Source of the DNA: a virus | Taxonomy: Duplodnaviria; Heunggongvirae; Uroviricota; Caudoviricetes | Length of the DNA stretch: 4,639 nucleotides | Direction: 5' to 3' (one strand) | IMG/VR virus record: IMGVR_UViG_2734482591_000017 | Shown here: one piece after another, positions 1-4,639 of the stretch | How the letters are laid out: each line of letters begins with the position of its first letter | How positions within the stretch are numbered: position 1 is the stretch's first letter | Translations under genes and position numbers: made by a program | Notes under the pieces: model-generated | The model's input: the letters and a program-made list of their open reading frames with translations, nothing else | Databases searched by the model: none | Told to the model about the DNA's origin: nothing

Positions 1-127
1 GGCGGCCATCCATCCAGTCATCGGTTCGTCTGAGAATGACGTGCAACTGCGCACGCGACACCCGGAGACAACGGCTGACTAAGCTTACTCCCCATCCCCG
101 GGCAATAAGGGCGCGTGCGCTATCCAC
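1..127 (-). CDS. insD: IS2 transposase InsD (OrfB), N-terminal part only; 3' end lies beyond the window start
   Basis: GTG start at 127-125 (minus strand) gives [20 protein letters not shown]..., matching the IS2 InsD N-terminus from memory. It overlaps the insC 3' end, as expected for the -1 frameshift arrangement. Confidence 0.85.
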
Positions 128-450
128 TTTTTTGCCCGTCCATATTCAACGGCTTCTTTGAGGAGTTCATTTTCCATCGTTTTCTTGCCGAGCAGGCGCT
201 GGAGTTCTTTAATCTGCTTCATGGCGGCAGCAAGTTCAGAGGCAGGAACAACCTGTTCTCCGGCGGCGACAGCAGTAAGACTTCCTTCCTGGTATTGCTT
301 ACGCCAGAGAAATAACTGGCTGGCTGCTACACCATGTTGCCGGGCAACGAGGGAGACCGTCATCCCCGGTTCAAAGCTCTGCTGAACAATTGCGATCTTT
401 TCCTGTGTGGTACGCCGTCTGCGTTTCTCCGGCCCTAAGACATCAATCAT
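85..450 (-). CDS. insC: IS2 transposase InsC (OrfA), 121 aa
   Basis: The ORF track 85..495 contains [30 protein letters not shown]...LLPGDGE. The recognised InsC start is the internal Met (MIDVLGPEK) at 450; the stop is TAA at 87-85. Confidence 0.9.
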
Positions 451-541
451 CTGTACTCCAATGACTAGTCTAAAAACTAGTATTAAGACTATCACTTATT
501 TAAGTGATACTGGTTGTCTGGAGATTCAGGGGGCCAGTCTA

Positions 542-788
<247 letters not shown>

Positions 789-944
789 ACAATTGCGATC
801 TTTTCCTGTGTGGTACGCCGTCTGCGTTTCTCCGGCCCTAAGACATCAATCATCTGTACTCCAATGACTAGTCTAAAAACTAGTATTAAGACTATCACTT
901 ATTTAAGTGATACTGGTTGTCTGGAGATTCAGGGGGCCAGTCTA
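789..944 (-). repeat. Second, isolated copy of the IS2 left-end 156 bp (IRL plus first ~21 codons of insC); exact direct repeat of 386-541
   Basis: Base-by-base comparison: 386-541 equals 789-944 (offset 403), while flanking bases differ (385 a vs 788 c; 542 a vs 945 c). Confidence 0.85.
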
Positions 945-1028
945 CGGACATTTTCTGCCTGTGGACCAGGAAAGTGCACGGGTGCTTTCCACTCCCATGA
1001 AGCCCGGCAATCCGCGCAGATACAGTAA
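945..1028 (+). pseudogene. 3' remnant of a nin-region gene truncated by the IS2 insertion (identity unknown)
   Basis: Frame starting at 945 reads ...RTFSACGPGKCTGAFHSHEARQSAQIQ and ends in tandem stops TAATAA (1023-1028). A GGAG Shine-Dalgarno for the next gene follows at 1053-1056, which suggests a genuine gene terminus. Confidence 0.3.
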
Positions 1029-1079
1029 TAAACGAACTGACAGCAGTAAGATGGAGCGTTTCTTTTGAACAACCAGACA

Positions 1080-1322
1080 ATGACTTTTACCCCTGAACAA
1101 TTGCGTAAACACGCGCAGGAAATGCTGCGTCATGCTGAACAACTCGAAAAAACGGGCATAACAAAAGACGCTATCCGTAAAGATATGGTACCCGCGCTTC
1201 GGGAACTGATGCAGGCGAAGCATCGCGCACAGAAAGCAGTAGATGAGCTGGTGGACTGTGTGGCAGAGCTGGAAACCAGAGTCGGAAAGTTTGAAAAACT
1301 GGTGCAGGAGGTGCTGCGCTGA
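1080..1322 (+). CDS. Hypothetical small phage protein (~80 aa, predicted helical), nin-region; alternative TTG start at 1065
   Basis: ORF track 1065..1322. ATG at 1080; GGAG at 1053-1056 is better spaced for the TTG at 1065. Its stop overlaps the rusA start (TGATG at 1320-1324), indicating translational coupling. No family recognised. Confidence 0.55.
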   Translation: MTFTPEQLRKHAQEMLRHAEQLEKTGITKDAIRKDMVPALRELMQAKHRAQKAVDELVDCVAELETRVGKFEKLVQEVLR

Positions 1323-1426
1323 TGCGCCATGAGTTTATTTTACCTTATCCGCCGACGGTGAATACTTACTGGCGACGTCGTGACAACACATATTTTGTAT
1401 CAAAAGCCGGTGAGCGTTATCGCCGG
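1322..1426 (+). CDS. rusA: RusA-like Holliday-junction resolvase, 5' part only (3' end lost in the N run)
   Basis: N-terminus MRHEFILPYPPTVNTYWRRRDNTYFVSKAGERYRR parallels E. coli RusA ([36 protein letters not shown], from memory). Its position immediately upstream of Q is typical of lambdoid nin regions. Confidence 0.75.
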
Positions 1427-1676
1427 NNNNNNNNNNNNNNNNNNNNNNNNNNNNNNNNNNNNNNNNNNNNNNNNNNNNNNNNNNNNNNNNNNNNNNNNNN
1501 NNNNNNNNNNNNNNNNNNNNNNNNNNNNNNNNNNNNNNNNNNNNNNNNNNNNNNNNNNNNNNNNNNNNNNNNNNNNNNNNNNNNNNNNNNNNNNNNNNNN
1601 NNNNNNNNNNNNNNNNNNNNNNNNNNNNNNNNNNNNNNNNNNNNNNNNNNNNNNNNNNNNNNNNNNNNNNNNNNNN
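1427..1676. other. Run of 250 N (assembly gap or masked sequence)
   Basis: Directly visible. ORF-track entries spanning it are artifacts because N translates as X with no stops. Confidence 1.
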
Positions 1677-1688
1677 GCAGGTCAAAAA

Positions 1689-2543
1689 ATGAAACTGGAA
1701 GATTTACCGAAATACTACTCCCCAAAATCCCCTTGCCTGACCGATGCATCGGCCTCAACGTCAAAAGATGCGCTGAGTATCACTGATGTGATGGCCGCGC
1801 AGGGCATGACACAGAATCGGGCTGAGATGGGGTTTTCTGCGTTCCTGGGGAAAATGGGCATCAGTATGAATGACAGGGCGCGGGCAACAGAATTACTGGC
1901 AGATTATGCACTCAGTCGGTGCGATCGTGTGGCGGCGTTGAGAAAACTTCCGGCAGAAATAAAACCGGTAGTGATGCGCATTATGGCTTCGTACGCTTTT
2001 GAGGATTATGCCCGCAGCGCAGCGAGTAAAAAGCAGTGCCCTTGTTGCTATGGGGAAAAATTTATTGAAAGCGTAGTTTTTACAAACAAGGTCCAGTATC
2101 CGGATGGTAAGCCGCCGGTATGGGCAAAGTGTACGAAAGGTGTGTATCCGTCTTACTGGGAAGAATGGAAAAAAGTCAGGGAGGTGGTAAAAGTTGCCTG
2201 TCCGGAGTGTGGCGGAAAGGGTGAGGTTTCCACCGCCTGTAAGGATTGCCGTGGGCGTGGTGTCGCCATTCATCGTGAAGAGTCGGTAAAACGTGGTATG
2301 CCTGTTATCAGAGACTGCCAGCGTTGTGGTGGTCGTGGCTATGAAAGACTACCATCAACGGAGGCATTTAATGCTATATGCGAGGTGACAAACCAGATAA
2401 CACGCGCGTCATGGGAAAAAACAGTTAAGAAATTCTATGATGCGCTGGTGACTCGGTTTGATATTGAAGAAGCATGGGCTGAGCGGCAGTTAAAAAAGGT
2501 AACTAGGTTGATTTTTCCGGAATCTGTGGTAAATTCGTCATAA
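1689..2543 (+). CDS. Late-gene antiterminator Q-like protein (phage 82 / QuuQ-type) with DnaJ-like CxxCxGxG zinc-finger repeats; true start may lie in the N run
   Basis: First ATG after the gap (1689) gives a 284-aa ORF with repeated Cys motifs (CPCCYGEK, CPECGGKG, CKDCRGRG, CQRCGGRG). It lies downstream of rusA and immediately upstream of a promoter/terminator pair and phage tRNAs, the canonical Q position. Family assignment is from memory. Confidence 0.7.
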   Translation: MKLEDLPKYYSPKSPCLTDASASTSKDALSITDVMAAQGMTQNRAEMGFSAFLGKMGISMNDRARATELLADYALSRCDRVAALRKLPAEIKPVVMRIMASYAFEDYARSAASKKQCPCCYGEKFIESVVFTNKVQYPDGKPPVWAKCTKGVYPSYWEEWKKVREVVKVACPECGGKGEVSTACKDCRGRGVAIHREESVKRGMPVIRDCQRCGGRGYERLPSTEAFNAICEVTNQITRASWEKTVKKFYDALVTRFDIEEAWAERQLKKVTRLIFPESVVNSS

Positions 2544-2547
2544 CTAT
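2508..2547 (+). promoter_or_regulatory. Candidate late promoter pR' with promoter-proximal pause element (qut-like region)
   Basis: -35 TTGATT (2508-2513), 16-bp spacer, extended -10 TGgTAAATT (2527-2535). Predicted start is near 2542, followed by AACTAT at 2542-2547, a -10-like element resembling the lambda pR' AACGAT pause inducer. It overlaps the Q stop codon (2541-2543). Confidence 0.45.
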
Positions 2548-2583
2548 GGGCGTTTTATGCCTGACGTTAGAAGAGTTTCTACA

Positions 2584-2607
2584 ACCCGCCGCCGAGCGGG
2601 TTTTTTA
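2584..2607 (+). terminator. Intrinsic terminator (tR'-like) ending a short (~65 nt) leader RNA from the candidate pR'
   Basis: GC stem cccgc / gcggg (2585-2589 with 2596-2600), 6-nt loop, followed by TTTTTTATTG (2601-2610). Confidence 0.6.
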
Positions 2608-2645
2608 TTGCGGAATTAATTACGGACCGTTATTATTCTGCTCCC

Positions 2646-2721
2646 GGCCCTTTAGCTCAGTGGTGAGAGCGAGCGACTCATAATCGCCAGGTCGCTGGTT
2701 CAAATCCAGCAAGGGCCACCA
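2646..2721 (+). tRNA. ileZ: tRNA-Ile2 (anticodon CAU, presumably lysidine-modified); ileX/ileZ-like
   Basis: 76 nt with 7-bp acceptor stem GGCCCTT/AAGGGCC, D-arm GCTC/GAGC, anticodon loop CU-CAU-AA, T-loop TTCAAAT, discriminator A and encoded CCA. Very close to E. coli ileX as I recall it, so Ile2 is preferred over Met. Confidence 0.85.
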
Positions 2722-2820
2722 TCACAAACCGCCATTAGCTTATCAGGAAGAGCAGACGACACGATAACAGGGTTGTTGGTGCGGGGGCGGGTCCCCGATG
2801 GCGGTCCATTATCGGTATTC

Positions 2821-2897
2821 AGCGTTGTTAGCTCAGCCGGACAGAGCAATTGCCTTCTAAGCAATCGGTCACTGGTTCGAATCCAGTACAGCGCGCC
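2821..2897 (+). tRNA. tRNA-Arg (anticodon UCU, reads AGA/AGG); argU-like phage tRNA
   Basis: 77 nt with acceptor stem GCGTTGT/ACAGCGC (one G-U pair), anticodon stem ATTGC/GCAAT, loop CT-TCT-AA, T-arm ACTGG TTCGAAT CCAGT and encoded CCA. Confidence 0.85.
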
Positions 2898-3008
2898 ATA
2901 TTCATTCTTCCAGATTCCTTCCGGCAGAGCCTTATACTGAAATATACCTGGCTCAGGATATTGTTGAAAATATTTTATGTTTGTCAAAAATAAAAGTTCT
3001 GTTAAGTA

Positions 3009-3362
3009 TTGATTGAGTGTTTGTTATACGGTCTAATGGTTTTTTCAGCATTAAATATTTATCATTCATATGGTGTGGGTAGAGTGAATATTGATGAGGC
3101 GTCGGGGTGTTTCATCCTTAGGCAGCGTATTGATATAGTCAATGCAGCACGAGCAAAGGCCTTCAGCCGTTTGACAGTTTTGTTCTGTACTCCTGATCGT
3201 CTTTCGGGAAGAGACGTTATTATTCTGAATAGTGATGCTATACAGAGGGTTTGCGATGAGTTCATGGTTGCTAATTCAGAATTATTTGCTCTTGTTCAGG
3301 AGTACAACAGAATAGCCAGGACCTGTGGTATGGATGAACTTCGGATTACTCATCTGGGGTAG
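3009..3362 (+). CDS. Hypothetical protein, up to 117 aa; start ambiguous (TTG 3009, ATG 3036, GTG 3084), no convincing Shine-Dalgarno
   Basis: ORF track entry. It occupies the position of stxA in Stx phages but has no resemblance to Stx. Rare-codon rich (3 AGA, 3 AGG, 3 AUA). Could be non-coding or a decayed gene. Confidence 0.3.
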   Translation: MIECLLYGLMVFSALNIYHSYGVGRVNIDEASGCFILRQRIDIVNAARAKAFSRLTVLFCTPDRLSGRDVIILNSDAIQRVCDEFMVANSELFALVQEYNRIARTCGMDELRITHLG

Positions 3363-3442
3363 ATACATATCTGGATTATCACCTGTTACGGTAAAAAGTG
3401 ATTGCTTACTGTTTTTGTGAATGGCATTGCAGCAGCCGGATA

Positions 3443-3529
3443 ATGTCAGTGCTGGCTGACGGTGTGCTGGTGGCGGGTGTGGTGGTTGTTGCTTTCCCGT
3501 TGCTGAAAAAGAAAACGCCAGACTGTTAG
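3443..3529 (+). CDS. Candidate 28-aa hydrophobic mini-protein MSVLADGVLVAGVVVVAFPLLKKKTPDC (possible small membrane peptide); GTG 3398 would give 43 aa
   Basis: Read manually; below the ORF-track length cutoff. One predicted transmembrane-like stretch followed by KKK. Locally GC-rich codons (GTG/CTG/GGT) contrast with the AT-rich surroundings. Weak Shine-Dalgarno. Confidence 0.2.
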   Translation: MSVLADGVLVAGVVVVAFPLLKKKTPDC

Positions 3530-3670
3530 CCGGGTATCAGTTAGCGGGAGAAATTTTTAAATACTTCACAATTCAGGCGGTTGACTGTTGTCTGGTTTGC
3601 GGGGAGTTTGTTAAAAGAAACTGGCATGGTGAATCCCCCTGTGCGGAGGGGCAATCAGCGAGTAGGTATA

Positions 3671-3679
3671 TGGGATAAT
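3671..3679 (+). promoter_or_regulatory. Candidate extended -10 promoter element TGgGATAAT
   Basis: TG at 3671-3672, hexamer GATAAT at 3674-3679. No good -35. It would start a transcript of about 100 nt ending at the 3754-3790 terminator. Confidence 0.25.
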
Positions 3680-3753
3680 CGCGGATTCAGGTGCTGGTAC
3701 TGAATTCACCGGGAGGCACCCGGCACCATGCAATGGCACATAGCGCCACTCTC

Positions 3754-3790
3754 CAGCCCCTCTCCGGAGGGGCTGTTTATATTGATTTTG
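3754..3790 (+). terminator. Strong intrinsic (rho-independent) terminator, plus-strand orientation
   Basis: Perfect 9-bp GC-rich stem CAGCCCCTC / GAGGGGCTG (3754-3762 with 3767-3775), loop TCCG, then U-rich tail TTTATATTGATTTTG (3776-3790). Confidence 0.65.
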
Positions 3791-3807
3791 TCAGATGTGA
3801 GTAAACT

Positions 3808-3839
3808 CCTTATGGACTTTGTTGTTTTAGTCCATAAGG
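3808..3839 (-). repeat. Perfect 11-bp inverted repeat (hairpin) covering the stop codon and last codons of the minus-strand ORF
   Basis: CCTTATGGACT (3808-3818), 10-nt loop, AGTCCATAAGG (3829-3839). No clear U-tract follows on the minus strand, so it may be a 3' stabiliser or weak terminator. Confidence 0.45.
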
Positions 3840-4145
3840 ACATATTTGCAGAGTGCAACGGTTATTAAAGCATTCATTCAATACGTTATCTGTATTTGTA
3901 GGGCATTCCTGGCTATTTTTGATTGAATTCCAGAATGTTTTATTGAATGGTACTACGTTGTAAATGGTTACAGGTAGCACTTTGTTATTGAGCATGATGC
4001 CTGTGTGAGTCAGTGTAAATATACTTTCAGGAGGTAAGAAAGCATCCGATTGATACCAGATTATTAATTTTATTTTACTCCATATGACTGAAAAAGATAT
4101 TCCGCATGATGGCTGGATAACTGTATCAATCACAATCCACTTCAT
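3810..4145 (-). CDS. Hypothetical protein, 111 aa, antisense to the phage late operon; Trp/Ile/Asn-rich, no recognised family
   Basis: ORF track entry, verified codon by codon. ATG at 4145-4143 preceded by AAGGA with 6-nt spacing (plus-strand 4152-4156). Stop is TAA at 3812-3810. Six of its 13 Ile codons are AUA. Confidence 0.55.
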
Positions 4146-4185
4146 TTAGTTTCCTTGTTTATGCCTTGCTGGTGATGTTCTGAAA

Positions 4186-4212
4186 AGTATAAATGATATT
4201 TTTGAATGTAAA
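4186..4212 (-). promoter_or_regulatory. Candidate sigma-70 promoter for the 111-aa minus-strand ORF
   Basis: On the minus strand: -35 TTTACA (plus 4212-4207), 15-bp spacer, -10 TATACT (plus 4191-4186), about 40 nt upstream of the ATG. The spacer is short, so confidence is modest. Confidence 0.35.
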
Positions 4213-4405
4213 CCATAGAGCAGAATTATTTTTCTGATGTTGTTTATTGTTTATTTAAATGCAGGGTGGTTTATATCTCGTCTTGTAGTTTATCCATGCA
4301 TATCTGCTTGATAATCAGGTTTTTATTTAAGGTATGGTTTTGTGTTTTTTCTGTATTACATGTCAGGTATTTTAAAGAATTATTTTTCAGATGGTGGAAA
4401 GAACC

Positions 4406-4579
4406 ATGGCATTTAAACACTATGATGTTGTCAGGGCGGCGCCGCCGTCAGATCTTGCGGAAAAGCTGACACATAAACTGAAAGAGGGCTGGCAGCCGTT
4501 TGGTAGTCCGGTGGCCATAACCCCTTATACCCTGAGGTGTACTGGCAATAGCGGACACTACCATTTGTTCTTTTTTTAA
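4406..4579 (+). CDS. DUF1737-like small phage protein (57 aa from ATG 4406; ORF track starts at 4391), possibly the 5' part of a longer frameshifted gene
   Basis: MAFKHYDVVRAAPPSDLAEKLTHKLKEGWQPFGSP... matches the YDVVRA...LAEK...KLxEGWxPxG pattern I recall for DUF1737 proteins between Q and the lysis genes. GGTGGAAAG precedes the ATG. The ORF ends in TAA directly after a T7 run (4571-4577). Confidence 0.45.
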   Translation: MAFKHYDVVRAAPPSDLAEKLTHKLKEGWQPFGSPVAITPYTLRCTGNSGHYHLFFF

Positions 4580-4639
4580 GCAGCCATCTGATGATATTTT
4601 TCCCTGAAGGCTGCCGGGGAGATATTCCCCAGACGAGAG

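Follow-up and report, generated by a model that had tools for sequence, protein, structure and literature searches.

An antisense gene in a lambdoid prophage of Shigella sonnei-type DNA is iraL, a previously characterized RssB anti-adaptor gene

INTRODUCTION

The closest described system to the gene studied here is IraL of uropathogenic Escherichia coli CFT073, an anti-adaptor of RssB reported by Hryckowian et al. (mBio 2014, PMC4045071). [quoted passage not shown] The iraL allele of the S. sonnei strain used there is presumably identical to the one analyzed here. CFT073 iraL is reported to be expressed in log phase without phage induction, iraL remains active when it is placed with its native promoter at attTn7 or on pACYC184, and 5'-RACE of its mRNA yielded the 5' end sequence ACATCACCAGCAAGGCATAAACAAGGAAACCA (PMC4045071).

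IraL belongs to the same class of RssB anti-adaptors as IraM of E. coli K-12 (YcgW, encoded beside e14). The biology of iraL was published in 2014, and the structure of its homologue, IraM in complex with RssB (PDB 8twd), followed in 2023. In that structure, IraM is docked on RssB at the alpha4-beta5-alpha5 face and at the helical linker, which blocks the engagement of sigma-S. The two anti-adaptors differ in their regulation, since Mg2+ starvation induces K-12 iraM and iraL is reportedly expressed in log phase without stress. They also differ in their binding, since IraM contacts both domains of RssB and IraL reportedly only the N-terminal one. Because of this difference, the 8twd complex is only a partial guide to the binding mode of IraL. 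The C-terminal tail of IraM was cut from the 8twd crystal construct and is described with the structure as flexible and less conserved.

Two further proteins are relevant for comparison. RssC of Salmonella is an IraL/IraM-like anti-adaptor with approximately 49% identity to iraL and is restricted to Salmonella (PMC4045071). PmrD, a connector protein that protects phospho-PmrA, resembles IraM and IraL in that each binds the receiver domain of a response regulator; the partner of PmrD is PmrA and not RssB, and the outcome of binding also differs.

RESULTS

The window, by which we mean the entire 4,639-nucleotide stretch analyzed here (IMG/VR record IMGVR_UViG_2734482591_000017), is a piece of a lambdoid prophage in DNA of the S. 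sonnei type. The features that frame the gene of interest all lie on the plus strand.

1065-1322, plus strand: small coiled-coil ORF
Interrupted by the N run at 1427-1676, plus strand: rusA-type gene
1689-2543, plus strand: Q antiterminator (Pfam Antiterm, E = 7e-55)
2646-2721 and 2822-2898, plus strand: tRNA genes
3595-3784, plus strand: STnc100-family sRNA gene (Rfam RF02076, 132 bits against a gathering score of 47, E = 5e-30)
4391 onward, plus strand: start of a DUF1737 gene

The protein encoded by the antisense ORF is, residue for residue, the NCBI-listed protein for Shigella. It is encoded in S. sonnei chromosomes such as HE616528.1, whose flanking DNA matches window positions 553-1426 and 1677-4639 at 99.9 to 100%. 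Positions 1677-4535 are collinear with the prophages of CFT073 and E. coli 042 at 98 to 99% identity, and the gene occupies the same slot as in E. coli 042 and in the potB-island prophage of CFT073, extending from the Q and tRNA genes to the DUF1737 and lysis genes. In S. sonnei the prophage is a remnant: IS21-type and IS2-type sequences take the place of the DNA upstream of 1065, the DUF1737 gene is interrupted at approximately 4536 by an IS3-family element, and the lysis cassette found in the CFT073 and E. coli 042 prophages has been lost. Within this remnant, iraL, its promoter, and its ribosome-binding site are intact, which fits a gene that is kept for the benefit of the host.

Several smaller features of the window were recorded alongside. 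IS debris lies on both sides of the prophage fragment, at 1-1060 and 4536-4639, and includes an IS2-type orfA (85-495, minus strand) and an IstB-like C terminus (541-730). An exact 156-bp repeat is present at 386-541 and 789-944, and the first 541 bases are arranged unlike those of S. sonnei reference chromosomes, which may reflect repeat assembly. The end of the rusA-type gene and the beginning of the Q gene are hidden within the 250-base run of N at 1427-1676, and a single N is present at 543. The tRNA gene at 2646-2721 (plus strand) was called tRNA-Met (CAT) by ARAGORN, and its RefSeq homologue is annotated as tRNA-Ile. This is consistent with the ileZ-type tRNA of Stx-like phages, in which the CAT anticodon is modified to read AUA. 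An ORF at 3009-3362 (plus strand; probable ATG at 3036) is a conserved phage ORF (phrog_2873, E = 4e-70) that had no match in Pfam, NCBIfam, or PADLOC and is absent from the RefSeq annotation of E. coli 042. Positions 3398-3529 (plus strand) encode a 43-amino-acid small hydrophobic protein of the DUF3927/TciB-like type (phrog_1470, moron/host takeover) that is annotated in both E. coli 042 and CFT073.

A reading of this DNA made from its letters alone, referred to here as the sequence-only reading, had singled out a 111-amino-acid ORF at 3810-4145 that runs antisense to the surrounding genes. That ORF was confirmed; with an ATG start in the list of translated ORFs, it lies opposite in orientation to the Q gene, the tRNA genes, the sRNA gene, and the DUF1737 gene. 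The features of this gene are as follows.

3810-4145, minus strand: iraL coding sequence, 111 amino acids plus stop, IraM-family RssB anti-adaptor (ORF list, NCBIfam, identity to the CFT073 and K-12 proteins, match to PDB 8twd, structural model, and dN/dS)
3813-3905, minus strand: C-terminal tail, residues 81-111 (cysteine pattern from alignment)
3807-3840, minus strand: hairpin with a perfect 12-bp stem and a 10-nt loop, spanning the stop codon and the 10 codons before it (PYGLKQQSP) (sequence and folding; putative function)
4152-4156, minus strand: Shine-Dalgarno sequence AAGGA, 6 nt upstream of the ATG (read from the sequence)
4178, minus strand: transcription start (A) with a 33-nt leader (alignment of the published CFT073 5'-RACE sequence; assigned here by identity)
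4184-4191, minus strand: -10 region, TATACT (4186-4191) overlapping TACTTT (4184-4189) (position relative to the mapped start)
4207-4212, minus strand: -35 hexamer TTTACA (sequence and distance from the start; unchanged in CFT073 and in E. coli 042)

The homology searches that the sequence-only reading had proposed showed that the protein is not an orphan. The ORF matched the NCBIfam model NF007393, "anti-adapter protein IraM," with 162 bits against a cutoff of 121 over residues 1 to 110 of 111. The window protein is identical to CFT073 IraL (WP_000871291.1) at 110 of 111 residues and shares 61% amino acid identity with K-12 IraM over 107 residues. At the nucleotide level, 334 of the 336 coding positions are identical to CFT073 iraL, compared with only 69% identity to K-12 iraM. 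The study that described iraL counted a sequence as iraL if it had at least 95% nucleotide identity to CFT073 iraL across the coding region and did not overlap with matches to iraM (PMC4045071); by this definition, the window gene is iraL and not iraM. A 701-bp segment that includes the promoter, the leader, and both flanks is 99% identical to CFT073 and to E. coli 042, with six differences from CFT073, two of which are inside the ORF. By contrast, the similarity to K-12 iraM stops at the ends of the ORF, and the DNA upstream and downstream of iraM is not homologous to the window, so the locus is not that of an iraM orthologue. In thousands of E. coli genomes, RefSeq names the matching ORF "anti-adapter protein IraM," a label that is given to IraL and IraM proteins alike.

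Other resources were less specific. In our own Pfam scan, the ORF had no match at E <= 0.01 and gave only a spurious hit to Nairovirus NSm (E = 0.056). Precomputed tables assign the Pfam label PF11183 (PmrD) to the IraM/IraL family; since hmmscan did not reproduce this label, we relied on the fold match described below. PHROGs lists the family (phrog_4407) as having unknown function. Our word-seeded homologue search reached Escherichia sequences only and did not retrieve RssC, which is compared with IraL from its published description.

With regard to composition, the protein had been described as rich in Ile, Asn, and Lys, with 5 Cys and about 5% Trp. The first four values stand (Ile, 11.7%; Asn, 9.9%; Lys, 6.3%; Cys, 5 residues), and the Trp content is lower than claimed, at 4 of 111 residues (3.6%).

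The sequence-only reading had itself raised the possibility of a chance ORF in AT-rich DNA, frameshifted or absent in close relatives. Under this explanation, the hairpin and the promoter-like sequences would be fortuitous as well. The GC content of 30 to 38% across 3750-4350 suits such an explanation, as does the outcome of a generic promoter scan, which found no excess of sites over shuffled sequence and missed the iraL promoter. Against it stand the match to a curated family above its cutoff, the published genetics and biochemistry of iraL (PMC4045071), and the conservation of the gene. Intact IraM/IraL relatives were found at 53 to 88% identity, the dN/dS ratio relative to K-12 iraM is 0.15 (with synonymous sites saturated), and intact homologues are present in thousands of genomes. 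An iraL-type copy (>=90% identity) occurs in approximately 1,450 of 5,426 complete E. coli genomes, and most of the complete genomes that lack one carry the iraM type alone. Taken together with the solved homologous structure, this wide distribution, the intact relatives, and the dN/dS ratio indicate a real protein gene, and we regard the chance-ORF explanation as already refuted.

By consensus alone, the iraL promoter is weak and no better than chance. The -35 hexamer TTTACA is separated by 15 nt from TATACT and by 17 nt from TACTTT. A generic sigma-70 scan of the window did not call the iraL promoter, and the sites it did call were no more numerous than in shuffled sequence. The promoter is nevertheless real, because the 5'-RACE end reported for CFT073 (PMC4045071) aligns at 4178 on the minus strand. 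From this base onward, ACATCACCAGCAAGGCATAAACAAGGAAACCA aligned to the window; the single mismatch, 3 nt ahead of the ATG, is a natural difference. Four positions in the upstream 255 bp differ from CFT073, which places this region above the 96% conservation taken as the threshold for an iraL upstream region. The claim of a plausible sigma-70 promoter is thus anchored by the CFT073 5'-RACE, and the promoter is not statistically distinctive in its own right. The predicted start near 4178 on the minus strand proved to coincide with the published iraL start to the exact base, and the proposed ribosome-binding site, AAGGA, is well spaced as claimed. The further proposal of expression in the lysogen from a promoter of the gene's own, and not together with the late genes, agrees with what has been reported for the 99%-identical CFT073 locus (PMC4045071).

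Comparison with other family members is consistent with these assignments. The window and CFT073 iraL have in common the -35 and -10 elements, the ribosome-binding site, the hairpin, and the 111-amino-acid length. They differ at residue 74 (L in CFT073, S in the window), at the -1 base (G in CFT073, A in the window), and three bases before the ATG (C in CFT073, T in the window), as well as in host, which for the window is an S. sonnei-type chromosome, and in the state of the prophage, which in the window is truncated by IS elements. In a paralog from an Stx2c phage (74% identity), a consensus TATAAT stands at the aligned position of TATACT, and the ribosome-binding site AAGGAAA is also kept.

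A PhoP-box-like direct repeat, TGTTTATTGTTTATTTA, with one mismatch to the consensus, is located at 4241-4257 (plus strand), 63 to 79 nt upstream of the iraL start. We considered it as a sign of iraM-like regulation and rejected it, since this is one site with a single mismatch compared with 1.6 expected by chance in the window.

At the 3' end, a perfect hairpin of 11 bp had been described at the stop codon. The hairpin is perfect and does cover the stop; it measures 12 bp, with arms at 3807-3818 and 3829-3840 and the TAA stop (3810-3812) within the 3' arm. The stem itself is stable upon folding. For the 106-nt 3' region, the folding energy is -39.2 kcal/mol (z = -6.2 versus shuffles), a figure that includes the terminator of the neighboring sRNA gene. 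The status of the hairpin as a terminator did not hold up: the terminator scan called no minus-strand terminator in the window, and the stem has no U-tract and is followed by GUUUACUCAC. A canonical intrinsic terminator was therefore rejected, both for the failed U-tract criterion and for the lack of conservation in paralogs. Neither K-12 iraM nor the Stx2c-phage paralog has the hairpin, and the proteins of both end four residues earlier; an approximately 28-nt segment comprising the hairpin 3' arm and the codons for QQSP is present in iraL and absent from both. Among the iraL copies compared the hairpin is invariant, and because all of these are approximately 99% identical, covariation is uninformative. 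The hairpin could be a stabilizer of the mRNA 3' end, a weak terminator, or an accident of inverted duplication; it is not a demonstrated terminator.

The STnc100-family gene and iraL converge, with 25 nt between the end of the sRNA gene and the stop codon of iraL. The terminator scan identified its intrinsic terminator at 3754-3775, followed by a T-run, 22 nt beyond the iraL hairpin. This terminator would normally shield iraL from read-through on the plus strand. Q-modified late transcription might be expected to override it and to run antisense across iraL. According to a 2026 preprint, STnc100 and the PasD sRNAs found in Stx-type phages are linked.

The structure prediction that the sequence-only reading had called for gave an IraM/PmrD-like fold. 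A phmmer search matched residues 1 to 78 of the window protein to 8twd_A (IraM) with E = 6e-31. The AlphaFold model has pLDDT values of 72 to 87 at residues 1 to 80 and below 50 at residues 81 to 111, and it superimposes on 8twd_A with a TM score of 0.90 and a root mean square deviation of 1.3 A. PmrD structures were the next matches (PDB 4hn7, 2jso, and 2rqx); they share the same small beta-barrel at TM scores of 0.70 to 0.75 and 13 to 21% identity, and the window protein has no significant sequence match in our own Pfam scan. K-12 IraM and the window protein are thus alike in the beta-barrel-plus-helix fold, and they also share four tail cysteines and most of the RssB contacts. In the crystal structure, RssB is contacted by 15 residues of IraM (clusters I to III plus Pro66), and 11 of them are identical in the window protein, including all of the cluster I contacts and all five residues that touch the RssB N-terminal domain. 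The remaining four are conservative changes (T13S, L75I, H63N, and I64V).

The one residue that distinguishes the window protein from CFT073 IraL is encoded by codon 74 (3924-3926, minus strand), which specifies Ser in the window (Shigella) allele and thus corresponds to L74S. An improbable but specific alternative follows from this change, namely, that the Shigella allele is a weakened or inactive iraL in which L74S has crippled RssB binding, while the ORF has stayed intact only by inertia as the IS-ridden prophage around it decays. In its favor, the other 16 family members examined, down to 53% identity, all have L or I at position 74, which adjoins RssB-contact residue 75; the disruption of the prophage by IS elements on both sides and the absence of the lysis cassette also accord with decay. 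On the other hand, the S74 protein is unchanged on at least 999 contigs, and the index places it in 4,016 blocks of the collection. [quoted passage not shown] We therefore favor a functional iraL over a weakened allele. Binding to RssB and stabilization of sigma-S are established for iraL, and for the window allele both are predicted with high confidence from near-identity.

The tail carries four cysteines, C81, C92, C97, and C102, which lie within the pattern CP-x9-C-x4-C-x4-CP and are invariant in 17 of 17 aligned IraM/IraL members down to 53% identity; the fifth cysteine, C14, is variable among the aligned members. One could imagine that the cysteine tail forms a small metal- or redox-sensitive module for the stability or activity of IraL and that, in addition, the hairpin and the STnc100 terminator couple iraL mRNA 3'-end formation or stability to the sRNA or to late-phage transcription. 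We consider this combined proposal speculative and rather unlikely.

DISCUSSION

The ORF at 3810-4145 is iraL, an already characterized RssB anti-adaptor gene, and no new biology follows from this window. Very probably, the iraL copy described here is a real, lambdoid-prophage-borne gene with its own promoter, the product of which would bind RssB and stabilize RpoS; for the mechanism, this explanation draws on near-identity to the CFT073 protein. In this scheme, iraL is a horizontally acquired gene that occupies the accessory-gene slot of a lambdoid prophage, a slot flanked by the Q antiterminator and tRNA genes on one side and by the lysis cassette on the other. A sigma-70 promoter of its own would drive its transcription against the direction of the phage late transcript, with the start at minus-strand position 4178, and it would be translated from the ATG that AAGGA precedes. 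IraL is predicted to fold as a PmrD-like beta-barrel (residues 1 to 78) followed by a Cys-rich tail. Binding of IraL to RssB, a response-regulator-like adaptor, would then prevent the handover of RpoS (sigma-S) to ClpXP, so that RpoS would be stabilized during exponential growth and the general stress response would be primed.

A gene expressed from the lysogen in the accessory-gene slot of a prophage could instead be a lysogenic-conversion gene that serves mainly in anti-phage defense or superinfection exclusion and not in RpoS control. That position, together with the listing of phrog_4407 in PHROGs as a family of unknown function, is compatible with such a role. Nonetheless, no PADLOC profile matched (0 families at E <= 0.01), which led us to reject the defense-gene idea. 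Moreover, the direct partner documented for IraL is RssB, the effect documented for it is a change in the stability of sigma-S (PMC4045071), and iraL has been retained in a prophage remnant that is no longer able to make phage. A defense role is, in our estimation, very unlikely, and RpoS control remains our reading. Since the known effect of iraL is on RpoS stability, the phage plaque assays that had been suggested as a follow-up target the wrong phenotype.

IraL is one route to high RpoS during growth in pathogenic E. coli and Shigella, which may help these bacteria to tolerate stress within the host. The gene also offers a clear example of a prophage accessory gene that rewires a core regulator of the host cell. 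For methods that read DNA without databases, the window serves as a positive control: the sequence-only reading correctly recognized a gene that is transcribed independently and expressed from the lysogen, and its predicted start site was right to the base.

The comparisons also brought up a third paralog of the IraM family, WP_001303568.1, from the Stx2c phage of E. coli O157:H7 Z1816 (NZ_CP062719.1; positions 4115-4438 of our locus L004), located immediately after stx2cB. Our literature search found neither a paper on this paralog nor an experimental characterization of it. The protein has 74% amino acid identity to IraL and differs in its length of 107 amino acids, in the lack of the QQSP extension, which K-12 IraM also lacks, and in its placement between stx2cB and a SASA-family esterase gene. 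As with iraL, its gene is antisense to the late genes and occupies the same slot after the Q and tRNA genes, its -10 region can be aligned, and it abuts the same GC-rich terminator hairpin.
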